Shown: positions 38,631-48,051 of the stretch, in pieces
Layout of the letters: the number at the start of each line of letters is the position of its first letter
Position numbering within the stretch: position 1 is the stretch's first letter
Source of the DNA: a virus
Lineage: Duplodnaviria > Caudoviricetes
Direction: 5' to 3' (one strand)
DNA: 64,000 nucleotides
IMG/VR virus record: IMGVR_UViG_3300032295_003840
Coordinates: 1-64,000 of that record
Notes under the pieces: generated by a model
The model's database searches: none
What the model was told of the DNA's origin: nothing
Seen by the model: the letters and a program-made list of their open reading frames with translations, nothing else
Made by a program: the position numbers and the translations under genes

Positions 38631-39173
38631 ATGACTCCAGAAAAGAAGCCTCTTAGTAGAAGCGAAAGAGAAGCCCAGATCAAAGACAAAGCTGGATGGG
38701 TTATTACTGTGCTTGCTGCTCTTTTGGCCATTAATACTTATGTTGCTAATAGCAATAGTAGTAAGGTATTGAAGAACACCATCAGTGCCAACAATACCTG
38801 GGCCTTTTATCAGGCCAAGAGCATCAAACAGACACTGGCTGAACAGAGCCTGGACGATGCTTTGAATCGCGGAGATCGGGCAAAAGCCGATCGCCTGCAG
38901 AAAAAGATTGAGCGCTATGAGTCCGATCCCAGCACAGGAGAAGGTAAACGAGAACTCATGGCCAAGGCTCGAGCACTGGAAGCCGAGCGTGATGCCATAG
39001 CCAAAAAAAGTCCTTGGATGACTTTTTCGGGTAGCACATTTCAAATCAGCATCGTCCTACTCACTGCCAGCATCTTGGCAGTCAGCATGCCCCTGTACTG
39101 GGCCAGCATTGGAGTAGGTGTTCTAGCCACCCTGCTGATGTCTCAGGGCATCTGGTTGTGGCTACCATTCTAA
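38631..39173 (+). CDS. DUF4337-like membrane protein
   Basis: ITVLAALLAI, WAFYQAKSIK, FQISIVLLTAS. Confidence 0.75.
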   Translation: MTPEKKPLSRSEREAQIKDKAGWVITVLAALLAINTYVANSNSSKVLKNTISANNTWAFYQAKSIKQTLAEQSLDDALNRGDRAKADRLQKKIERYESDPSTGEGKRELMAKARALEAERDAIAKKSPWMTFSGSTFQISIVLLTASILAVSMPLYWASIGVGVLATLLMSQGIWLWLPF

Positions 39174-39189
39174 CCGTCAAGGAGGTACC

Positions 39190-39489
39190 ATGCGTACCCT
39201 GCTCATAGCTGCACTGCTGTTGATGTCTGGTCTGGCATCAGCTCGCCAATTTGAATTTGAAAAGACCATAATCTGTGACGATACCCGCACCGTGTTTGAG
39301 TATTTCCAAAGCGGCAAGTATCAGGAAAAGCCAGTCTGGATTGGTCGGGATCTGGTAGAAGCCGCAGTAAGTCATGTCATGATGTTGAATAAACAAACCG
39401 GTACCTGGACACTGATTCAGTTCGATGAACAGTATGCCTGTGTGCTGGCCGCTGGCGAGAACTATCAGCTCATGGGCGAAAAAATCTGA
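39190..39489 (+). CDS. Secreted hypothetical protein
   Basis: Signal peptide; TGTWTLIQF..ACVLAAG. Confidence 0.7.
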   Translation: MRTLLIAALLLMSGLASARQFEFEKTIICDDTRTVFEYFQSGKYQEKPVWIGRDLVEAAVSHVMMLNKQTGTWTLIQFDEQYACVLAAGENYQLMGEKI

Positions 39490-40163
39490 TGCGCTGGTTA
39501 GTCGTACTGTGCCTGGTGATGTCCTGCCAGGCACAGGCCCTGACTGCACGCAGCTGGTTGATTACCGATACTGACTTAAATGTGCAGTCTGGTCATAACT
39601 ACCGTGAACTGCGCAGCATTGCCAGTCTGACCAAGCTACTAACTGTCATGGTCTCCATAGACGATGGCACTGCCAGACCCGAGCTGGTTAAACTGGCCAT
39701 GGTGAACAGCAGCAATTCAGCAGCCACGCAGCTCTGTAAAAACTACAGTCGTGGTTATCAGGCCTGCATACGAGCCATGAACGAAAAGGCCATGCGGTTG
39801 GATGCCTGGAATACCTATCTCTATGACTCTACAGGACTGGATCGACGCAACCGCAGCACAGCACAGGACATAGCACGCATTGTACTGGCGGCCAGAAACT
39901 ATGCACAGATAGTTGAGTCTAGTCATATACTCAGAGATCGTAAAAAGAAAATGGTGCTGAAGAATACCAACCCCTTGGTAGGCACCTTCAACACCACGGT
40001 TAGCAAGACAGGCTGGACCATGGCTGCTGGTGGTTGCATAGCAGTGCTCATAGAAAATCGCATCTATGTCCTGCTGGGCAGTCGCAACACCAAGACTCGA
40101 GTCACTGAACTTGCTCAATTGGTACGGGCAGAGGGAGTCGAACCCTCAAAACTCGGATTTTAA
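39489..40163 (+). CDS. D-alanyl-D-alanine carboxypeptidase/endopeptidase (peptidase S11)
   Basis: IASLTKL (SxxK), SSN (SxN), SKTG; signal peptide. Confidence 0.9.
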   Translation: MRWLVVLCLVMSCQAQALTARSWLITDTDLNVQSGHNYRELRSIASLTKLLTVMVSIDDGTARPELVKLAMVNSSNSAATQLCKNYSRGYQACIRAMNEKAMRLDAWNTYLYDSTGLDRRNRSTAQDIARIVLAARNYAQIVESSHILRDRKKKMVLKNTNPLVGTFNTTVSKTGWTMAAGGCIAVLIENRIYVLLGSRNTKTRVTELAQLVRAEGVEPSKLGF

Positions 40164-40195
40164 GTCCGATACGTATACCATTCCGTCATGCCCGC
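40120..40195 (-). tRNA. tRNA-Leu(TAA), short variable loop
   Basis: Cloverleaf, TCGGA-CTTAAAA-TCCGA, CCA encoded. Confidence 0.88.
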
Positions 40196-40199
40196 AATT

Positions 40200-40276
40200 T
40201 GGTCTCCGTAGCAGGGTTCGAACCTGCGACCCCCAGTCCCCCAGACTGGTGCGCTACCGGGCTGCGCTATACGGAG
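40200..40276 (-). tRNA. tRNA-Pro(GGG)
   Basis: CCAGT-CTGGGGG-ACTGG, CCA. Confidence 0.92.
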
Positions 40277-40846
40277 TTAATTCCAGTTGGTCGGAGCGCC
40301 CTGCAGGCCTGGATTGCCTCCCTCGGCGCGACTGCGTTTTAAAACTTCTTCCAGCAGTATAGGGCGGAAGTCGGTCTGTTCAACACAGACGCAGAAGTAA
40401 CGCAGATCAATTTCCTGATTGTCTAGACGCACACGCTTTTCATGCGTGTGTCCATGAATGTTCAGACCAAAGCGACCATGACTTTCAGGATGCAGGGGTA
40501 TGTGACTTAGTATGACACCTGCACCTGTCATGACATGATAGGCTCGGATGTCTCGAAAGTACTTGGTGTAGTCTTCGAGCTTGAAGATGTCGTGGTTGCC
40601 CTTGATCAGCACCTTGTCGCCGTTGAGACGATCCAGCGTGCTGAGTGCCCGACGATTGATCACCACGTCGCCCAGATGATAGACCTTGTCGCCAGGTCGT
40701 ACTGCGTCATTCCAGCGACGCACCATCTCATCATCCATTTCTTCGGGCGTGTCCCAGGGACGAAGCTTGGTACCATCCTGGCGTGTAAAACGGCATACGC
40801 CCAGATGACCAAAATGTGTATCACTTACTAACCATACTGCAGGCAT
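40277..40846 (-). CDS. Metallophosphoesterase
   Basis: SDTHFGH, HLGDV, KGNHD, SHIP, HGHTH. Confidence 0.92.
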   Translation of the reverse strand: MPAVWLVSDTHFGHLGVCRFTRQDGTKLRPWDTPEEMDDEMVRRWNDAVRPGDKVYHLGDVVINRRALSTLDRLNGDKVLIKGNHDIFKLEDYTKYFRDIRAYHVMTGAGVILSHIPLHPESHGRFGLNIHGHTHEKRVRLDNQEIDLRYFCVCVEQTDFRPILLEEVLKRSRAEGGNPGLQGAPTNWN

Positions 40847-40865
40847 TTTATACTCCTGTTGATTG

Positions 40866-41804
40866 TCAAGGTGCTTCGCCGAATCTGGGTCGATCCAGCA
40901 ACAGATCAGTTGTTGGATTCCAGACACCGGATATGTTCCAGTCTGTGCTGACAGCACCAACTGGTAGTCGACCTGTGCTGAGGTTCACCATGGCGCTGGT
41001 CATGGTATCGCGATTAGCAAAGTTTAAATGGAAACTGGCCGGCCCGCGTCGATACTTGGTTATGTCGAATCTCTTGGCCACCCAACGCCCACCAATATAT
41101 TCTCCAAATACTTCAGGTCCCAGTATGACATCGTCCAGCATGACATGATCGGCGACGCGCATGTCGGCATAGGGTGTTGACCCATAGATGCCTATGTAAT
41201 TGGCGAAAGTAGGGTTGTTCATATATCCATTGTTGCCCAGCGTTGGCTGTGTGTTGACGTTTAAATTGGTCTGACGTTCTCCATTGACCCACAGACGTAC
41301 ACGATCAGTAATGGCGGCATTGTTGATGTCCGCAGTTAAATGTACATTGTGCCATTGATTCAGGGGCCAGGCCTTGTTGGTAAGTATTCTCCAACGAAAC
41401 ACCGACGACACATAGGCATAGGCATCAATGGTGCCAGTGGTAGTAAAACCAATGTTGTCATAGTTACCAGATGAATTGTAGGCTGCCATGAAGTAGTTGT
41501 TGCCGACAAAACTCAGTTGCTTGACCCAGACATTGATGGTATAGGTCTGTGCATTGGCACCTGCAGGACACAAACGCACCAGATGCTGACTGGCCCGGGC
41601 CGCTGTGAACTGTATGCTGGTCGGTGGACGATAGCTGGCTTGACCATCAAAGCTGTTGAAACTCACAGGGCTGGTATCGCCAGGTAATCGATCCAGTGTG
41701 TCTAAAACTCTGGGATCACCCAGAGACACAGGTCCAGCACCCAGAGCCAGCTCGTTGCGCAGATCGTCGAAGCTGTACTGCTGTCCAGGTTTATTTAATG
41801 CCAC
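40866..41804 (-). CDS. LamG/concanavalin-A-like lectin, probable adhesin
   Basis: YTINVWVK, WHNVHLT, RLWVNG; adhesin-like N-terminus (YSFDDLRNEL..SFNSFDG); GTG start inferred. Confidence 0.65.
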   Translation of the reverse strand: MALNKPGQQYSFDDLRNELALGAGPVSLGDPRVLDTLDRLPGDTSPVSFNSFDGQASYRPPTSIQFTAARASQHLVRLCPAGANAQTYTINVWVKQLSFVGNNYFMAAYNSSGNYDNIGFTTTGTIDAYAYVSSVFRWRILTNKAWPLNQWHNVHLTADINNAAITDRVRLWVNGERQTNLNVNTQPTLGNNGYMNNPTFANYIGIYGSTPYADMRVADHVMLDDVILGPEVFGEYIGGRWVAKRFDITKYRRGPASFHLNFANRDTMTSAMVNLSTGRLPVGAVSTDWNISGVWNPTTDLLLDRPRFGEAP

Positions 41805-42315
41805 GACGTAACTCCTGCACCTGTTGATCCAGTTCCTGTATGGCAGCAATCAGCAGAGGCACCAGACGTTCGTAGCGCACAGTAAGGTACGCTGGATCCA
41901 CGGGTGCGGGTGCTACTGCCTCGGGCAGTTGTTGCTGCACCTGCTGAGCACTGACACCTACTTCGCGTACTGCAGGATCATAGCCCAGCCCAGCTGCGGT
42001 CTCGTTGGCATGATAGTAAAATGCCGACAGTGCACGCACACGCTGCAGAGCGTCTTCGATGCCGCCTAACTGTGTCTTGAGACGTTCATCAGAATAGTAG
42101 GCTGTGATGTTCTTCGTGGCCAGTATCTCACCAGGCACGCCGATGTGATCAGTACCAACACTCAGACTATTCAGAAACACCTGAGGATCATTGCTGGTGG
42201 GTATGGCAGTGCGCACCTGTTGCTGCTGAATTCTGGGCGCAATGGCCGAACCCGCGGCTGGCACTGTTGACTGATAGCTTGGCTGAAACTGTTTATTGCT
42301 GGTTGTATTGGGCAT
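41791..42315 (-). CDS. Short fibre protein with peptidase S74 chaperone domain
   Basis: ITAYYSDERLK, VGVSAQQV..PEAV, VRYERLVPLLIAAIQEL. Confidence 0.85.
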   Translation of the reverse strand: MPNTTSNKQFQPSYQSTVPAAGSAIAPRIQQQQVRTAIPTSNDPQVFLNSLSVGTDHIGVPGEILATKNITAYYSDERLKTQLGGIEDALQRVRALSAFYYHANETAAGLGYDPAVREVGVSAQQVQQQLPEAVAPAPVDPAYLTVRYERLVPLLIAAIQELDQQVQELRRGIK

Positions 42316-42348
42316 GGCTTACTCCTGACAGATTATCAGGTATTTATC

Positions 42349-42424
42349 TGGCGCGGCTGGCAGGAATCGAACCCACATCGGACGCTTTAGAAGAGCGTTG
42401 CCTTATCCATTAGACCACAGCCGC
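42349..42424 (-). tRNA. tRNA-Arg(TCT)
   Basis: ACGCT-CTTCTAA-AGCGT, CCA. Confidence 0.92.
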
Positions 42425-42429
42425 GTTGT

Positions 42430-42834
42430 TCATCGAGTCAGTTCGCCCAGAGCTCGATATCCCTTGTAGGTGGGATGCACACCGTCGGCACTGATGTTGG
42501 ATTCTGGTCTGAGAATAATGATGTCAGTGAACTCAGTGGCAACCTTGGTCACAGCTTCTACCTGCTTGGGCTTGAGACGAGCGCTGGGCAGAATCCAAAA
42601 AACTCGATCTGCCTTGGCATTGGCTCGAAGTTTCCTAACATTGGCTTCGGTGTCCACACCCAGGTCATTGGCACCCAGACTGATGATCAGAGTACGTGCT
42701 GGTTTCAGTTTGTGCAGATGCAGCTGATTCCAATTTGCAGAGTTGATGCCACTCTTGGCAATGCTCTGACATTCAGTGCGGACCTGACTTACTCCTACGG
42801 CGATGCTATCGCCTACGATTAGACATTCTATCAT
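42430..42834 (-). CDS. SGNH/GDSL hydrolase-like protein
   Basis: GDSIAVG, SLGAND, DGVHP. Confidence 0.85.
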   Translation of the reverse strand: MIECLIVGDSIAVGVSQVRTECQSIAKSGINSANWNQLHLHKLKPARTLIISLGANDLGVDTEANVRKLRANAKADRVFWILPSARLKPKQVEAVTKVATEFTDIIILRPESNISADGVHPTYKGYRALGELTR

Positions 42835-43304
42835 GCTACTCTCAATCCTTTGAATCGATCCGCAGCATAGCTGGCAGCAAATGCTCGGGGTTTAACCATG
42901 GGCACGACGTTGCAGGTGCCGCGAATGTAGCCAACAGCTTCGTTGATTACACAGCTGGAACCATGAAGCTCGTCAGGGTTGATGTCCAGATGTACTTCGA
43001 CCCGACGATCCTCCAGCACGTCATGCAGCTTTTGATACAGTTCAGCAATCTTGTAGACTTCATTCATGAGCCGCATGCGCGGACGAGCCTTTTTCTGATC
43101 CCAGTCACGCTCACGGCTTACTTCGCCAAAAATCTTGCAGCCATTGTTGCCGTTGATGTGCACTACAATGACCATGATGTAGTCTGCGTACCAGTCATTG
43201 CCAATCTTGATGCGCTCACTGTCGCCACCGATGTAGATCTTGGTGTCGGGAGTCTGTGCTTCAATGAAGCCTCGTACTTGTTCAATGTCAATAACTGGTC
43301 GCAT
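42831..43304 (-). CDS. RNase H-like YkuK family protein
   Basis: IYIGGDS, RLMNEV, EVHLDIN, AASYAAD. Confidence 0.85.
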   Translation of the reverse strand: MRPVIDIEQVRGFIEAQTPDTKIYIGGDSERIKIGNDWYADYIMVIVVHINGNNGCKIFGEVSRERDWDQKKARPRMRLMNEVYKIAELYQKLHDVLEDRRVEVHLDINPDELHGSSCVINEAVGYIRGTCNVVPMVKPRAFAASYAADRFKGLRVA

Positions 43305-43320
43305 TTTACCACCTTTAATT

Positions 43321-43394
43321 TGGCATCCCGCTAGGGACTCGAACCCCAACCAACGGTTTTGGAGACCGCTATGCTGCCATTACACCAGCGAGAT
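43321..43394 (-). tRNA. tRNA-Trp(CCA)
   Basis: GCGGT-CTCCAAA-ACCGT, CCA. Confidence 0.92.
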
Positions 43395-43397
43395 ATT

Positions 43398-43601
43398 TTA
43401 CTTGATCAACTGTGTTTCCTCATTGTACCTGGTCTTGCGGTCCTCGGCCTCCAGAGCCGACAACACACAATCTTCAGTGCTGAGTATATCTTGAAAATCT
43501 GCAGGTCTTTTTTTCTTGAAAATGCTGTCCCAGTTATTGCTGAATGTTTCGGCATCTACACTCAGAGGCCTGGGACGACTTCCTTTACCACCATCACTCA
43601 T
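43398..43601 (-). CDS. Hypothetical protein
   Basis: MSDGGKGSRPRPLSV..NWDSIF. Confidence 0.65.
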   Translation of the reverse strand: MSDGGKGSRPRPLSVDAETFSNNWDSIFKKKRPADFQDILSTEDCVLSALEAEDRKTRYNEETQLIK

Positions 43602-43628
43602 TGTATTACCTCCTGACAACAATGTCAA
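43600..43628 (-). promoter_or_regulatory. Promoter within tRNA array
   Basis: TTGACA-17-TACAAT. Confidence 0.65.
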
Positions 43629-43636
43629 GTTATATA

Positions 43637-43712
43637 TGGTGCACCCTCCAGGGATCGAACCTGGTTCATCGGTTCTTCAAACCGCTGCTATGACCACATC
43701 AGCTAAAGGTGC
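43637..43712 (-). tRNA. tRNA-Phe(GAA)
   Basis: loop TTGAAGA, CCA. Confidence 0.9.
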
Positions 43713-43713
43713 C

Positions 43714-43789
43714 TGGGGAGTTGTATGAGGATTGAACTCATACTATCTCGGTCACAGCGAGATGTGCAGACCACTACACTAACAACTCC
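43714..43789 (-). tRNA. tRNA-His(GTG)
   Basis: TCTCG-CTGTGAC-CGAGA, G-1:C73, CCA. Confidence 0.92.
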
Positions 43790-43795
43790 ACGGAC

Positions 43796-43869
43796 TGGTC
43801 TCGGTGGAGGGAATCGAACCCCCGCCGCATGCTCCCAAAGCACGCATGATGCCATTTCACTACACCGAG
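43796..43869 (-). tRNA. tRNA-Pro(TGG)
   Basis: loop TTTGGGA, CCA. Confidence 0.92.
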
Positions 43870-43873
43870 TATC

Positions 43874-43948
43874 TGGAGCGGGTGACAGGGATCGAACCTG
43901 CGACGAACAGCTTGGAAGGCTGACACTCTACCACTGAGTTACACCCGC
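43874..43948 (-). tRNA. tRNA-Gly(TCC)
   Basis: loop CTTCCAA, U73, CCA. Confidence 0.93.
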
Positions 43949-43954
43949 ATTGTT

Positions 43955-44030
43955 TGGTGGGCCCACTAGGATTTGAACCTAGACTCAACGGATTATGAGT
44001 CCGCTGCTTTAACCATTAAGCTATAGGCCC
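43955..44030 (-). tRNA. tRNA-Ile2(CAT), probably lysidine-type
   Basis: GGGCCTA acceptor, loop CTCATAA; Ile2 vs Met is inferred. Confidence 0.75.
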
Positions 44031-44034
44031 TGAC

Positions 44035-44110
44035 TGGTGCTGCCAATGAGATTCGAACTCATGACCTCTGCCTTACCAAGGCAGCGCTCTACCGCTAGAG
44101 CTATGACAGC
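44035..44110 (-). tRNA. tRNA-Thr(GGT)
   Basis: CTGCC-TTGGTAA-GGCAG. Confidence 0.93.
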
Positions 44111-44111
44111 C

Positions 44112-44186
44112 TGGTGCATCGTGAGAGGATTGAACTCCCGACCTTCGCCTTGTAAGGGCGCAGCTCTACCGCTGAGCTAACGATGC
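44112..44186 (-). tRNA. tRNA-Val(TAC)
   Basis: loop CTTACAA. Confidence 0.92.
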
Positions 44187-44191
44187 ATAAC

Positions 44192-44266
44192 TGGTGCCCC
44201 TTGAAGGAATCGAACCCACACACCCGGACTACAAAACCGGACCTCTACCATTAAGGATAAAAGGGC
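44192..44266 (-). tRNA. tRNA-Thr(TGT)
   Basis: CCGGT-TTTGTAG-TCCGG, CCA. Confidence 0.85.
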
Positions 44267-44267
44267 T

Positions 44268-44343
44268 TGGTGGTGATGGAGGGAATCGAGCCCCCGACCC
44301 TCTGCGTATGAAGCAGGTGCTCTACCAACTGAGCTACATCACC
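44268..44343 (-). tRNA. tRNA-Met(CAT) elongator
   Basis: loop TTCATAC, CCA. Confidence 0.85.
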
Positions 44344-44347
44344 TGAT

Positions 44348-44421
44348 TGGTGCGGGCGGAGAGAATCGAACTCTCAACTAAACGTTGGCAACGTCTGATT
44401 TTACCATTAAACTACGCACGC
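44348..44421 (-). tRNA. tRNA-Gly(GCC)
   Basis: loop TTGCCAA; A73. Confidence 0.88.
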
Positions 44422-44426
44422 ATGTC

Positions 44427-44502
44427 TGGCTGCCAAGGTAGGGATCGAACCTACGACCAATTGATTAACAGTCAACTGCTACTACCACTGAGCTACTTGG
44501 CA
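44427..44502 (-). tRNA. tRNA-Asn(GTT)
   Basis: GTTGA-CTGTTAA-TCAAT. Confidence 0.93.
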
Positions 44503-44505
44503 ATA

Positions 44506-44742
44506 TTACTTGTTGGATACACAGATATCGCCTTTGAACAAATAGACATTGCTGTCTACTCTAGCCTGTTCAAAGAGCTGGTTGTCTACGCAGATATAGG
44601 GATCTTTGTAGTTGTTGAACCAATAGTATGCACCAAACCCCAGTCCTGCCAGAATCAGCAGTATGGGTATGTATTTGATATACTGGACAATGACTGGCAT
44701 TGAACCCAGTATCTGTGGCAGGAATTTTAGAAATTCTTTCAT
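44506..44742 (-). CDS. Small membrane protein
   Basis: TM helix; late-promoter-like CATAAATA upstream. Confidence 0.65.
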   Translation of the reverse strand: MKEFLKFLPQILGSMPVIVQYIKYIPILLILAGLGFGAYYWFNNYKDPYICVDNQLFEQARVDSNVYLFKGDICVSNK

Positions 44743-44753
44743 GCCACTATTTA

Positions 44754-44845
44754 TGGCGGTGAAGGTGGGATTCGAACCCACGGATCAACTTTCGTCAATC
44801 GACGGTTTAGCAAACCGCTGCCTTCGGCCACTCAGCCACTTCACC
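44754..44845 (-). tRNA. tRNA-Ser(GCT)
   Basis: loop TTGCTAA, long variable arm, G73. Confidence 0.93.
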
Positions 44846-44851
44846 TATAAT

Positions 44852-44928
44852 TGGTTGCGGTGTCTTGGATTCGAACCAAGGATCTTCGGCTTATGAGGCC
44901 GACGGGATGACCACTTCCCCAACCCGCA
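44852..44928 (-). tRNA. tRNA-Met(CAT), initiator-like
   Basis: TGCGGGT 5' end, TCGGC-CTCATAA-GCCGA, ..CCGCAACCA 3' end. Confidence 0.75.
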
Positions 44929-44930
44929 AT

Positions 44931-45005
44931 TGGTGCACCAGAAAGGAATCGAACCTTAGGTCTATCGATTATCAATCGATTGCTCTACCATTGAGCTACT
45001 GGTGC
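44931..45005 (-). tRNA. tRNA-Ile(GAT)
   Basis: ATCGA-TTGATAA-TCGAT. Confidence 0.93.
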
Positions 45006-45007
45006 CG

Positions 45008-45202
45008 CTAGGCTAACTGATCCACATTCATGCCCTTGGCATGGTCTTTCAGCACACCCTGTGTAGTATATAGTGTTACTGCATAGCTATAACGTTCAAC
45101 CTGAGTAACATCATTGCCTTTGTCATAGTCAAAGGTTGTTCTTTTTTCTATGGTGCGAAGGGCTCCATGCACACCATAATAGGTCGCTGTCTGTATCTCC
45201 AT
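45008..45202 (-). CDS. Hypothetical protein
   Basis: AAGGAG RBS, MEIQTATYYG..KGMNVDQLA. Confidence 0.6.
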   Translation of the reverse strand: MEIQTATYYGVHGALRTIEKRTTFDYDKGNDVTQVERYSYAVTLYTTQGVLKDHAKGMNVDQLA

Positions 45203-45212
45203 GTTTCTCCTT

Positions 45213-45287
45213 TGGCGGTCCCAAGGGGTAACGATCCCCTTCTTACGGCGTGACAGGCCGTCGTGCGTCCATGAACACTTTGGAACC
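45213..45287 (-). tRNA. tRNA-Asp(GTC)
   Basis: ACGGC-CTGTCAC-GCCGT; atypical T-loop ATCGTTA. Confidence 0.88.
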
Positions 45288-45409
45288 TTAGAAGAGTCTT
45301 CTGCACTATTTGCTATGCTCAACGGAGTGTCCTCGAGGTTTTACCGTCTGTGTACATAGTTACTCAGGCATGATCAAGCCCATGGCTTACAAAAGACTCA
45401 TCTAAGGTT
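45284..45409 (-). ncRNA. Candidate structured RNA enclosed by long helix
   Basis: AACCTTAGA-T-GAGTCTTTTG...CAGAAGACTC-T-TCTAAGGTT closing stem; no ORF. Confidence 0.5.
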
Positions 45410-45595
45410 GCTTGGGCTACTTGATTTCCAGTCATAGCCCCCAAGCTGAGTTGTTACCCTGTCCATCATTATATTGGTCATTTCCACGAATAATGAAACG
45501 CTGCTATGTTGTCTGCTTACGTATGCGCTGACGGTGCCATAGCCACCGGGACTTTATCGTTACCACACGCCAATTTCAGGAAATTGGTAACCGGA
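45410..45595 (-). ncRNA. Candidate structured RNA directly after promoter
   Basis: Several stems (GTTACCA/TGGTAAC, CGGTG/CACCG, TCATTA/TAATGA, GCTTGG..GGCTA/TAGCC..CAAGC); no ORF. Confidence 0.5.
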
Positions 45596-45601
45596 TTCTT
45601 C

Positions 45602-45629
45602 ATTGTAGCACCTTGATGCTAGATGTCAA
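45602..45629 (-). promoter_or_regulatory. Promoter within tRNA array
   Basis: TTGACA-16-TACAAT. Confidence 0.7.
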
Positions 45630-45636
45630 GCATTTT

Positions 45637-45711
45637 TGGTGGACCGTCAGAGAATCGAACTCTGACCTCTGCGGTGCAAACGCAGCGTGCTCCCATTATC
45701 ACTAACAGCCC
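45637..45711 (-). tRNA. tRNA-Ala(TGC)
   Basis: CTGCG-TTTGCAC-CGCAG, G3:U70. Confidence 0.93.
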
Positions 45712-45716
45712 AAAAA

Positions 45717-45791
45717 TGGCCGGTCCGGAGAGATTCGAACTCCCGACAGCTGGTTTCGAAGACCAGAACTCTTCCGCTGAGCTACGGACCG
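45717..45791 (-). tRNA. tRNA-Arg(TCG)
   Basis: CTGGT-CTTCGAA-ACCAG. Confidence 0.92.
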
Positions 45792-45796
45792 ATGCT

Positions 45797-45871
45797 TGGC
45801 AGGGGGTATAGGGATCGAACCTATGCATGGCGGGATCAAAACCCGCTGCCTTACCTCTTGGCGAACCCCCA
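45797..45871 (-). tRNA. tRNA-Gln(TTG)
   Basis: GCGGG-TTTTGAT-CCCGC. Confidence 0.92.
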
Positions 45872-45878
45872 ACTAACT

Positions 45879-45954
45879 TGGTGCCCCAGGGGAGATTCGA
45901 ACTCCCAGAATTTGGTTTCTAAGACCAACACGTATACCGTTCCGTCACCAGGGC
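45879..45954 (-). tRNA. tRNA-Leu(TAG), short variable loop
   Basis: TTGGT-CTTAGAA-ACCAA, CCA. Confidence 0.88.
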
Positions 45955-45961
45955 AAAAACT

Positions 45962-46048
45962 TGGTGGGTGCTCTCCGACTCGAACAGAGAAGGCCTAAGA
46001 CAACGGATTTACAGTCCGCCCCCGATACCATTACGGGACTAAGCACCC
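45962..46048 (-). tRNA. tRNA-Tyr(GTA)
   Basis: loop CTGTAAA, variable arm. Confidence 0.9.
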
Positions 46049-46055
46049 TACAACT

Positions 46056-46131
46056 TGGAAGTTGGAGTGAGACTCGAACTCACATTGACGCAGATTTGCA
46101 GTCTGCCGCGTAGCCTTTCCGCCATCCAACC
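46056..46131 (-). tRNA. tRNA-Cys(GCA)
   Basis: GCAGA-CTGCAAA-TCTGC, U73. Confidence 0.92.
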
Positions 46132-46286
46132 ATATAGAAACACACTAATGAACCAGCCTGACGCAGCCGTACGCTTGGCAGATCGTTTCCAATCTGTTTA
46201 TCGCTTTTCTCGGTACTCTGTATGTTCAGGATTCCGCAGTCCTCAGTACAATTGCTTGCAAGGGCAATCAATGTGTTTTTATATGG
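46130..46286 (-). ncRNA. Candidate structured RNA between tRNA-Lys and tRNA-Cys
   Basis: CCATATAAAAACACA...TGTGTTTCTATATGG closing stem with internal hairpins. Confidence 0.5.
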
Positions 46287-46358
46287 TAGGGGTAGTAGGG
46301 ATCGAACCTACGGCCAATGGATTAAAAGTCCACTGCTCTTCCTCTGAGCTATACCCCC
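46284..46358 (-). tRNA. tRNA-Lys(TTT)
   Basis: GTGGA-CTTTTAA-TCCAT. Confidence 0.92.
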
Positions 46359-46360
46359 AA

Positions 46361-46435
46361 TGGTACACCGTAGGAGAATCGAACTCCTCTTTACGCCTTG
46401 AAAGGGCGTCGTCCTAACCGATAGACGAACGGTGC
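46361..46435 (-). tRNA. tRNA-Glu(TTC)
   Basis: ACGCC-CTTTCAA-GGCGT. Confidence 0.93.
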
Positions 46436-46480
46436 GTATAACCTGCAAATTTTTAAAGATCAACTACTACAAGAAACTCT

Positions 46481-46508
46481 ATTGTAGCACCTTGACGCAC
46501 AACGTCAA
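46481..46508 (-). promoter_or_regulatory. Possible promoter within tRNA array
   Basis: TTGACG-16-TACAAT. Confidence 0.6.
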
Positions 46509-46559
46509 GCTTTTTTTCAAATAACCCTACGTCGTGTAAGGTTAATATACTGCTAATCC

Positions 46560-46651
46560 TGGCGGAGGGCGGAGGAGTCGAACCCCATCCACTTTCGCAG
46601 AACCTGGTTTTCAAGGCCAGTCGCAGGACCATCCCCGCTGCATCACCCTCC
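46560..46651 (-). tRNA. tRNA-Ser(TGA), first tRNA of the array
   Basis: loop CTTGAAA, long variable arm, G73, CCA; enlarged D-arm. Confidence 0.88.
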
Positions 46652-46659
46652 AAGTACAT

Positions 46660-46696
46660 AAACAAAAACCCCGAGCCTTTTGGGTCTCGGGGTCTT
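46660..46696 (-). terminator. Intrinsic terminator of putative attenuator
   Basis: ACCCCGAG-ACCCAAAAGG-CTCGGGGT followed by TTTTGTTT, 8 nt before tRNA-Ser. Confidence 0.85.
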
Positions 46697-46736
46697 GGTT
46701 TAGCTACCTGCTCTAGTTACGCTATACCCGACCCCC
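46689..46736 (-). promoter_or_regulatory. Putative antiterminator helix overlapping leader stop codon and terminator 5' arm
   Basis: GGGGTC-G-GGT-A-TAGC pairs with GCTA-A-ACC-AA-GACCCC. Confidence 0.7.
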
Positions 46737-46833
46737 GACTATTATCCCATGCGCCTGTTGCAAAGCGGTACTCTGGCTGCATGGTGCATCCATGAATACT
46801 GGGCTTCAGCGATGAGGATATGAGGTGTTGCAC
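46717..46833 (-). CDS. Putative attenuator leader peptide (38 aa, codon-diverse)
   Basis: AGGAG RBS 5 nt before GTG; MQHLISSSLKPSIHGCTMQPEYRFATGAWDNSRGSGIA*. Confidence 0.7.
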   Translation of the reverse strand: MQHLISSSLKPSIHGCTMQPEYRFATGAWDNSRGSGIA

Positions 46834-46861
46834 AACGACTCCTAGTTGATTAATTACTGCC

Positions 46862-46890
46862 ATGATATAGTATATATCTGTTCTTGTCAA
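46862..46890 (-). promoter_or_regulatory. Promoter for leader peptide/tRNA array
   Basis: TTGACA-17-TATCAT. Confidence 0.7.
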
Positions 46891-46916
46891 GAAAAATCAG
46901 AACTTTTTAAAAAATT

Positions 46917-47135
46917 TTACCTAAATGTATACCAAAAACCAGTCATGTAGATGGCCAGTAACCCAGCATTGACTATGACCAGATTCAATTCACGAATGCG
47001 GATAGCCCAGAGCAGATACAGCAGGCTACCAGCATTGCATAAAAAGATGTTCATGGGGTCGATACGAAAGCTGGTGCATAAAGCTCCAGCAATCGTACAA
47101 ACCAGCGCAGTCCATTTCAGTATATTATTTAGCAT
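46917..47135 (-). CDS. Small multi-TM membrane protein
   Basis: Three hydrophobic segments; ATG 6 nt after the -10 box. Confidence 0.7.
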   Translation of the reverse strand: MLNNILKWTALVCTIAGALCTSFRIDPMNIFLCNAGSLLYLLWAIRIRELNLVIVNAGLLAIYMTGFWYTFR

Positions 47136-47141
47136 ACTACC

Positions 47142-47170
47142 ATTATAGCACCTTGCTAGCCAGCTGTCAA
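47142..47170 (-). promoter_or_regulatory. Early promoter
   Basis: TTGACA-17-TATAAT. Confidence 0.85.
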
Positions 47171-47191
47171 GCACTGTTTTCATCAATGAAA

Positions 47192-47488
47192 TCAAGCAGT
47201 TAGCGTAGTGCTGGGCATGATGATGCCTGCGCCATAGACACGATCGTATTGAGTGCGCAGATCCTCGGCTGGATTGCTGGTCACCACAATCTTGTCATGC
47301 TTGACGGTAAACTCTTTGTCGGCACTGTAGGGAATCCACTGACTCAGGCCCACACTGGGTACTCCAGTTTCTGTGGGGCGAATATAGACAATCAGAGGAT
47401 TGCGAATCTGCACACCAACGTCACCACTGTCCACAATCTCGGCCAGTACATCTTCGCCTGTGACCAGACGCATTAATTTAATTTCCAT
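47192..47488 (-). CDS. Conserved T4-like Sm-like small protein
   Basis: IKLMRLVTGEDVLA..NPL..WIPYS..GIIMP. Confidence 0.75.
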   Translation of the reverse strand: MEIKLMRLVTGEDVLAEIVDSGDVGVQIRNPLIVYIRPTETGVPSVGLSQWIPYSADKEFTVKHDKIVVTSNPAEDLRTQYDRVYGAGIIMPSTTLTA

Positions 47489-47529
47489 GATGACTCCAAG
47501 ATGCGGCGGGTTGCCCCGCCGCGGTTTAA

Positions 47530-48051
47530 TTACAGACTGGTTTCAATCTGTGTTTTTTCATTTTCAGTCAGCAGTTGTTTTTTTCTGCTGCCTTCCTTGA
47601 CTTCGATCTTCTTGGGCTTCTTGTGCTCGGGAATGATGCGTTCCAGAGCAATCTGCAGCATGCCGTTGAACAAGGCTGCATCCTGAATCTCAATCTGATC
47701 GTTGAGTGCGAATGTGCGGGTAAACGCACGATTGGCGATACCTTTGAAGACATAGTCGGCATTGTTGTCTTCTTTGGTGTTGCCACGCACTACGAGCTTG
47801 TCATCCACAAATTCAATCTCAATGTCCTGACGAGCAAAGCCTGCCACGGCCATTTCAATGACATAGGTGTTCTCACCGGTCTTGCGAATATTGTAGGGAG
47901 GATAGTTGGGAATATCCTTGGTCACATCATCGTGTAGCTTGGCCAGACGATTGAACTGTTCTTCAAAACCAACAAAGAATTTGTCAATGCCCTTGAACAT
48001 TTCTTCAGGGTGTATTTCGGTATTAAGTTTAAATGGTCTTGTTGTGATCAT
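47530..48051 (-). CDS. Small heat-shock protein Hsp20
   Basis: NYPPYNI, EMAVAGF, GIANRAFTRTF, NGMLQI, PEHKKPKKI. Confidence 0.95.
   Translation of the reverse strand: MITTRPFKLNTEIHPEEMFKGIDKFFVGFEEQFNRLAKLHDDVTKDIPNYPPYNIRKTGENTYVIEMAVAGFARQDIEIEFVDDKLVVRGNTKEDNNADYVFKGIANRAFTRTFALNDQIEIQDAALFNGMLQIALERIIPEHKKPKKIEVKEGSRKKQLLTENEKTQIETSL

Follow-up and report, generated by a model that had tools for sequence, protein, structure and literature searches.

A predicted ribosome-coupled attenuator ahead of a phage tRNA gene array, with relatives in uncultured T4-like phages

The role of phage tRNA genes is debated, between a tuning of codon usage and the replacement of tRNAs destroyed by host defences, and to our knowledge the control of their expression is largely unknown. 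The locus described here raises the question of what a short open reading frame (ORF) and a strong terminator do directly in front of such genes. It occupies positions 46,560 to 46,890, on the minus strand, of a 64,000-nucleotide stretch (hereafter the window, positions 1 to 64,000 of the 166.9-kb IMG/VR virus record IMGVR_UViG_3300032295_003840), where a 38-codon leader ORF precedes an intrinsic terminator, tRNA-Ser(UGA) and the rest of a tRNA array, in that order. An earlier note on this DNA had read the arrangement as a leader-peptide attenuator of the trp/his/thr type that senses the tRNA pool. The answer proposed here, to which a probability of about 0.7 is given, is that the locus is a ribosome-coupled attenuator that would report how fast nearly all codon families are decoded and would feed back on phage tRNA synthesis.

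The promoter, the AGGAG sequence, the GTG-initiated frame of 38 codons, the terminator and tRNA-Ser(UGA) were all found where the earlier note had placed them (Table 1), and the whole regulatory design is compact, at about 230 nucleotides (nt). The central prediction of that note, that the last leader codons pair with the 5' arm of the terminator, is borne out by folding: positions 46740–46714 (region 2) pair with 46709–46683 (region 3) at -26 kcal/mol (z = -3.7 with respect to shuffles), and all 11 nt of the terminator 5' arm are taken up in this 2:3 duplex. Region 3 can alternatively pair with region 4 to form the terminator hairpin, with a folding energy of about -17 to -20 kcal/mol (core -16.7 kcal/mol, -20.1 with the flanks). 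This hairpin was missed by a consensus terminator scan on account of its simple loop of more than 8 nt, and it shows compensatory changes across an alignment of five relatives.

Close relatives with the same layout (loci L008 and L009) were reached through the IMG/VR homologues of the two proteins encoded upstream, and the leader frame is preserved in relatives by insertions and deletions of 3 nt that stay in frame. Two larger sets were assembled. For the homology set, contigs were fetched by a 16-nt word of tRNA-Ser (the exact word occurs in more than 118 IMG/VR contigs) and searched iteratively with nhmmer, which gave 45 distinct leaders. The pattern set was built to remove the bias of fishing with a tRNA: IMG/VR was scanned with a pattern drawn from the leader only (conserved codon block, gap and region 2 core, with no tRNA sequence), and 44 leaders were obtained, a few of them common to the homology set. 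About 85 diverged relatives were available overall.

All 45 homology-found leaders have an ORF of 30–60 codons ending 20–45 nt 5' of a strong terminator, and same-strand tRNA genes lie 3' of the leader in every case. In the pattern set, a tRNA-Gln was found within 150 nt in all 39 leaders with at least 200 nt of flank. Across the about 85 relatives an ORF of 25–60 codons is retained, with its stop codon next to region 2. The first downstream tRNA in most family members is tRNA-Gln or tRNA-Glu, not tRNA-Ser. Judged by sequence, the locus is a member of a large family in uncultured T4-like phages, and the conserved architecture ahead of tRNA arrays that the earlier note would look for in related phages is present, the ORF, the antiterminator and the high amino-acid diversity all being kept across about 85 sequences. 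The window leader and three other family leaders had no relatives among cultured phages in blastn searches (near and distant modes); tRNA-Ser alone was matched, in PHB09 and in mycobacteriophages. Several candidates were set aside: two on high-GC contigs in which the leader-core word had matched by chance (L027, L029), four with the leader pattern inside long ORFs (L164, L167, L211, L216) and three without a complete ORF (L176, L191, L204).

The predicted antiterminator is kept in nearly all of this family. In 43 of the 45 leaders region 2, about the last dozen codons, is complementary to the flank and 5' arm of the terminator; the 2:3 duplex falls at z < -2 with respect to shuffles in 43/45 (mean z = -3.9, mean energy -21.2 kcal/mol). 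The paired sequences vary widely from leader to leader, and cognate region 2/region 3 pairs among the 45 are nevertheless favored (-21.2 vs -14.6 ± 4.0 for non-cognate pairs), the cognate partner ranking in the top 5% for 22 of the 45 and best of all for the window leader. This preference is, at the level of predicted duplexes, covariation measured without an alignment. The alignment-free tests were used in place of pair counts on a MAFFT alignment of regions 2–4, which were abandoned since the GGG/CCC register was off by one column between sequences. When the nascent transcript is folded up to the terminator loop, the minimum-energy structure contains the 2:3 helix in 40/45 leaders, the window leader included. 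The 2:3 hairpin is also more stable than the terminator in 37/45 (mean -22.5 vs -17.2; window -24.7 vs -20.1). Measured from the end of region 2 on its 3' side, the stop codon lies at -6 to +16 nt. Therefore, a terminating ribosome would cover region 2.

The composition of the leader is as unusual as the earlier note had described it. Thirty of the first 31 codons of the window leader are distinct (GCA occurs twice), and 19 of the 20 amino acids are represented, with Val solely as the GTG start. The leader holds 33 distinct codons (25.8 ± 2.1 expected, P = 0.0004) and engages 23 of the 26 phage anticodons (16.5 ± 1.8 expected, P = 0.0002). For comparison, 37-residue windows of the phage's own proteins contain a mean of 15.2 amino-acid types, and only 1.9% of them reach at least 19. 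The 45 leaders have 16–20 different amino acids each, start excluded, with all 20 in 18 of them; their amino-acid types add up to 854, where 729 would be expected (z = 13.9 under the proteome composition, 13.1 under the pooled leader composition). Leaders of the pattern set have 18–20 types each. In 19 relatives with large arrays the engagement of anticodons has a mean z of 2.3, and one leader (L004) calls on 21 of 21. Codon diversity is above chance for the window leader alone, amino-acid diversity is in excess across the family, and no conserved runs of clustered regulatory codons were seen among the family leaders.

Three leaders lie inside arrays (L101, L086, L138) and a related one heads an array with no upstream tRNA seen (L141); all four are without Asp, Glu or Tyr. 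The tRNA sets downstream of these leaders are without tRNA-Asp and tRNA-Glu, and those of L101 and L141 also without tRNA-Tyr. In L101, L086 and L138 the tRNAs absent downstream sit upstream of the leader.

Codon changes counted in 19 independent pairs were synonymous in 92 cases and non-synonymous in 181, the closest pairs giving 13 and 24, respectively, and differences at codon positions 1, 2 and 3 numbered 142, 123 and 201. The peptide appears to evolve almost neutrally, with frame, length and diversity kept, which fits a leader whose translation, and not its product, matters.

A promoter matching the consensus at 10 or more of 12 positions is present within 110 nt 5' of the start codon in 33/45 leaders, whereas 2.3 would be expected from shuffles. 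The AGGAG sequence is present in L008, L009, L042 and L145 as well. In 26/45 the stretch from the terminator to the first tRNA contains no promoter of the same quality (at least 10/12), and several of these arrays hold 20 or more genes; in these 26 the tRNAs would therefore be made only by bypass of the terminator.

A boxA-like motif occurs in 23/45 family loci, 23–35 nt before the first tRNA in most of those, and is also seen where no second promoter exists (L095, L144, L039). The copy in the window (Table 1) resembles what we take to be the boxA of the Escherichia coli rrn operons; by analogy it could recruit NusB/S10 and make the polymerase resistant to Rho along the untranslated array. If both this and the sensing of the whole tRNA pool proposed below were true, the tRNA array would be a self-regulating unit resembling an rRNA operon.

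In the proposed mechanism, host RNA polymerase would start at P2 and transcribe the leader, with its sampling of 23 of 26 phage anticodons. Region 2 would be made first, and its helix with region 3 is predicted to match or exceed the terminator in stability. As long as region 2 is free of ribosomes, the antiterminator would form, and the polymerase would proceed into tRNA-Ser(UGA) and beyond. A ribosome keeping pace to the stop codon would cover region 2, leaving region 3 to pair with region 4, and transcription would stop. A delay at any leader codon, caused by a scarce, cleaved or uncharged tRNA or by a general block of translation, would favor read-through, and the fresh phage tRNAs would speed leader translation and restore termination, closing a negative feedback. 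We infer from the sequence both the translation of the leader and the kinetic coupling of ribosome and polymerase, together with the identity of the physiological signal that is sensed. Codon-usage mismatch, host shut-off, starvation or an anticodon nuclease could each act as the trigger; the link to anticodon-nuclease defences drawn in the earlier note is conjectural, and any slow decoding would act alike. The more ambitious claim, that the locus is a homeostatic sensor of the whole tRNA pool, sampling nearly each tRNA species once, in which the loss of any single tRNA would delay the ribosome and induce the phage's replacement set, is put forward tentatively, at a little under even odds. If true, it would be a built-in counter-defence sensor common to many uncultured T4-like phages.

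Several observations weigh against the attenuator or narrow its scope. At equilibrium the terminator is the favored structure of the full-length window leader for almost all ribosome positions simulated, so the switch has to be a kinetic one, as the decision in classical attenuators likewise is; a polymerase pause site was not identified. In the 5' part of the ORF no conserved 1:2 helix emerged (mean z = 0, with 2/45 below -2); the minimum-energy fold of the window pairs codons 3–4 with region 2, a pairing that is not conserved. Since region 2 lacks a conserved partner in the 5' ORF, the design is one of three regions, and the untranslated RNA is predicted to read through. A four-region topology like that of trp was rejected for want of the conserved 1:2 pairing. 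Of the trp/his/thr-type attenuator in the earlier note, the coupling of a terminator and an antiterminator to a leader ORF finds support, and the topology does not.

On the side of composition, the window leader lacks an internal Val codon, leaves the anticodons Leu(UAA), Val(UAC) and Arg(UCU) unused, and shows no enrichment for codons decoded by the phage (32/37 vs 84% in the background, P = 0.43). The family members are related, so the statistics summed over them overcount independent events. Peptide motifs recur as well (QPEYR, a Trp, and at the C terminus a Gly with Phe or Val after it); they partly reflect region 2 itself, and the peptide may conceivably have a role.

The promoters also limit the reach of the switch. 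In the other 19/45 leaders a second promoter follows the terminator, resembling tandem promoters, and in L107 an equivalent of P3 lies between the terminator and tRNA-Ser. Counted among relatives, a promoter stands ahead of the first tRNA and behind the terminator in 19 of 38, and there the switch could do no more than raise a basal level. The window itself has near-consensus promoters 3' of the leader at 46508, 45629 and 43628. Therefore, only tRNA-Ser(UGA) would be strictly gated there and the rest of the array at most boosted; the claim that the switch turns on phage tRNA supply would hold for the former and not for the latter, which has promoters of its own.

These promoters, which are strong both in the window and in the 19 relatives and in L107 precede tRNA-Ser itself, together with the recurrent motifs and the somewhat more frequent changes at third codon positions, are what an independent small-protein gene would lead one to expect. 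P2, the ORF and the terminator would then be free-standing and the peptide functional, the terminator merely ending the gene and shielding an array driven by its own promoters. Such a gene is improbable. The closest pairs are near neutral in their codon changes, and a protein-coding role leaves unexplained the complementarity between region 2 and the terminator 5' arm (43/45, cognate best), the 19–20 amino-acid types per leader, the position of a promoterless tRNA-Ser, or elsewhere of 20 or more tRNA genes, behind the terminator, and the constant placement before tRNA genes.

Still less likely is a reading in which the open frame is incidental and the product is a regulatory or stable non-coding RNA, about 190 nt long, that acts as a small RNA or as a switch controlled by a protein or ligand. 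The leader transcript is indeed strongly structured (46856–46652, z = -4.9), its nucleotide conservation among the closest relatives is high, and the tRNA cluster of T4 is known to include stable non-tRNA RNAs. An untranslated RNA, however, gives no account of an ORF kept in about 85 sequences with its stop codon by region 2 and its insertions and deletions in frame, nor of the Shine-Dalgarno sequence, and the excess of amino-acid diversity would be meaningless in it. In Rfam (cmscan, E ≤ 1, positions 39000–48000) no family fell on 46652–46860, the only hits being tRNA-type matches and chance ones.

A classical attenuator specific for serine, in which the UCN codons 6–8 (TCC TCA TCG in the window, L008 and L009) would sense Ser-tRNA and control the adjacent and sole strictly gated gene, tRNA-Ser(UGA), and to which the pairing of codons 3–4 with region 2 in the window fold would also lend itself, was rejected as very improbable, because the Ser run is gone in L107, L042 and L145, which keep the switch and tRNA-Ser, because most relatives have tRNA-Gln or tRNA-Glu next, and because the 1:2 pairing is not conserved.

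Table 1. Features of the leader locus and the start of the tRNA array (window coordinates).
Feature	Position	Strand	Description	Basis
Leader promoter P2	46862..46890	-	sigma-70 type; TTGACA (46890-46885), 17-nt spacer, TATCAT (46867-46862); consensus match 11/12	
Shine-Dalgarno AGGAG	46839..46843	-	five nt 5' of GTG (46833)	sequence reading
Leader ORF, protein P0001	46717..46833	-	GTG start, 38 sense codons and TAA (46719-46717); 19/20 amino acids	
Region 2, predicted antiterminator 5' strand	46714..46740	-	last leader codons and stop; core 46736-46721	
Region 3, shared strand	46683..46709	-	flank and terminator 5' arm; pairs with region 2 or region 4	
Intrinsic terminator	46660..46696	-	hairpin 46693-46668, A:U extension to 46696; T-tract 46668-46660	
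tRNA-Ser(UGA), class II	46564..46651	-	8 nt past the T-tract; no promoter of its own	Rfam, blastn, fold
Internal promoter P3	46481..46508	-	TTGACG, 16-nt spacer, TACAAT, TG before the -10; would drive tRNA-Glu and later genes without regard to the switch	promoter scan
boxA-like motif	46442..46461	-	25 nt 5' of tRNA-Glu; candidate NusB/S10 antitermination site	

The window encodes a replication module of the T4 type (gp43-like polymerase, DnaB-like helicase, SbcC-like nuclease, ribonucleotide reductase and Hsp20). Its array holds 28 tRNA genes, 26 of them called by ARAGORN, together with tRNA-Ser(UGA) and a tRNA-Tyr(GUA) at 46048–45966, and covers 26 distinct anticodons and all 20 amino acids. 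Neither of the two added genes was called by ARAGORN. In Rfam, tRNA-Ser(UGA) matched the tRNA-Sec model with 36 bits at 46564–46651, under the family threshold; by blastn part of Pseudomonas phage PHB09 is 90% identical to it, and an annotated mycobacteriophage tRNA-Ser was matched as well. It carries a C:A mismatch at the anticodon-stem base. The class II tRNA-Tyr(GUA) (45966–46048, minus strand) was matched in Rfam by the tRNA-Sec model only, also below threshold. In PHB09 (OK040171.1) the segment 3001–3089 is an unannotated copy of tRNA-Ser(UGA) in the middle of an array, likewise uncalled by ARAGORN, and no leader lies beside it.

Upstream of the leader, a promoter with perfect consensus (47170–47142, minus strand) serves P0002 (46917–47135, minus strand), a protein of 72 residues that is probably membrane-spanning. 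P0002 has homologues in 18 IMG/VR contigs and no match to a PHROG family; at the distant loci of such homologues (L010–L025) neither tRNA genes nor a leader were found in the stretch read downstream. The tblastn search with the neighboring protein P0003 reached only T4-like cyanophages, at about 34% identity. The promoters of the array region (46481–46510, 45602–45631, 43600–43630 and 47142–47170, all on the minus strand) have in common a block just before and including the -10 hexamer. In three of them a short palindrome extends into the spacer, with the -35 hexamer as one of its arms. L008 and L009 retain this palindrome with altered sequence; a dimeric regulator may use it as an operator, or it may belong to a hybrid early/middle promoter.

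Two array spacers on the minus strand (45288–45600, directly 3' of the promoter at 45629, and 46132–46283) are long and have no convincing ORF; by analogy with T4, stable RNAs other than tRNAs may be encoded there. Among the tRNA genes lie small protein-like ORFs at 43398–43600, 44506–44750 and 45008–45205 (minus strand), one of them directly behind the promoter at 43628. None of them has the leader/terminator layout, the other gaps of the array hold no leader cassette, and no second copy of the leader was found in the 167-kb genome.

In the leaders of trpL, hisL, leuL and pheL the position of the ribosome on a short ORF chooses between terminator and antiterminator, and in enterobacteria two leaders, those of ilvGMEDA and thr, are not limited to a single amino acid in what they sense. 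The locus described here shares with such attenuators of amino-acid operons (for pheL, see PMC3082878) a promoter-proximal short ORF, an intrinsic terminator and a predicted antiterminator that uses the 5' arm of the terminator. It differs from them in its target, phage tRNA genes instead of biosynthetic enzymes, and in its codons, which form no regulatory run and name nearly each amino acid once or twice. Unlike trp, it has no conserved region 1, and a loss of translation should give read-through instead of super-attenuation. No account of a leader attenuator in front of phage tRNA genes turned up in a literature search whose coverage of subscription journals was thin.

T-box riboswitches also let the status of tRNA decide, through an antiterminator, whether an intrinsic terminator is read through. 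They bind one uncharged tRNA directly, are untranslated and control synthetase and amino-acid genes, and no T-box was matched in Rfam at 46652–46860 (cmscan, E ≤ 1).

If the proposed attenuator is true, demand-driven control would act on the tRNA genes themselves, through a translated test gene probing the tRNA pool as a whole, and leader-peptide attenuation would be extended beyond single amino acids to decoding capacity in general. The design could be used to report whether the tRNA pool is intact, and the idea is open to comparative testing since the family is widespread in large uncultured phages.

Closest in logic are the leaders that respond to translation stress in general, those of bmrB-bmrCD in Bacillus subtilis (PMC4191407), vmlR (PMC9226507) and msrD (PMC10314930) and the upstream ORF toiL of E. 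coli (PMC12121999), in which a short ORF likewise signals that ribosomes have slowed or stalled, from any of several causes, and induces genes that bring relief. These leaders respond to antibiotics, their outputs are resistance factors or a toxin-antitoxin pair, and some of them act through Rho or by attenuation of translation, whereas the output here would be the supply of tRNA itself and the composition of the leader is spread over all amino acids. By its mechanism the locus belongs with leader-peptide attenuation, and by its logic also with the leader ORFs of general translation stress.

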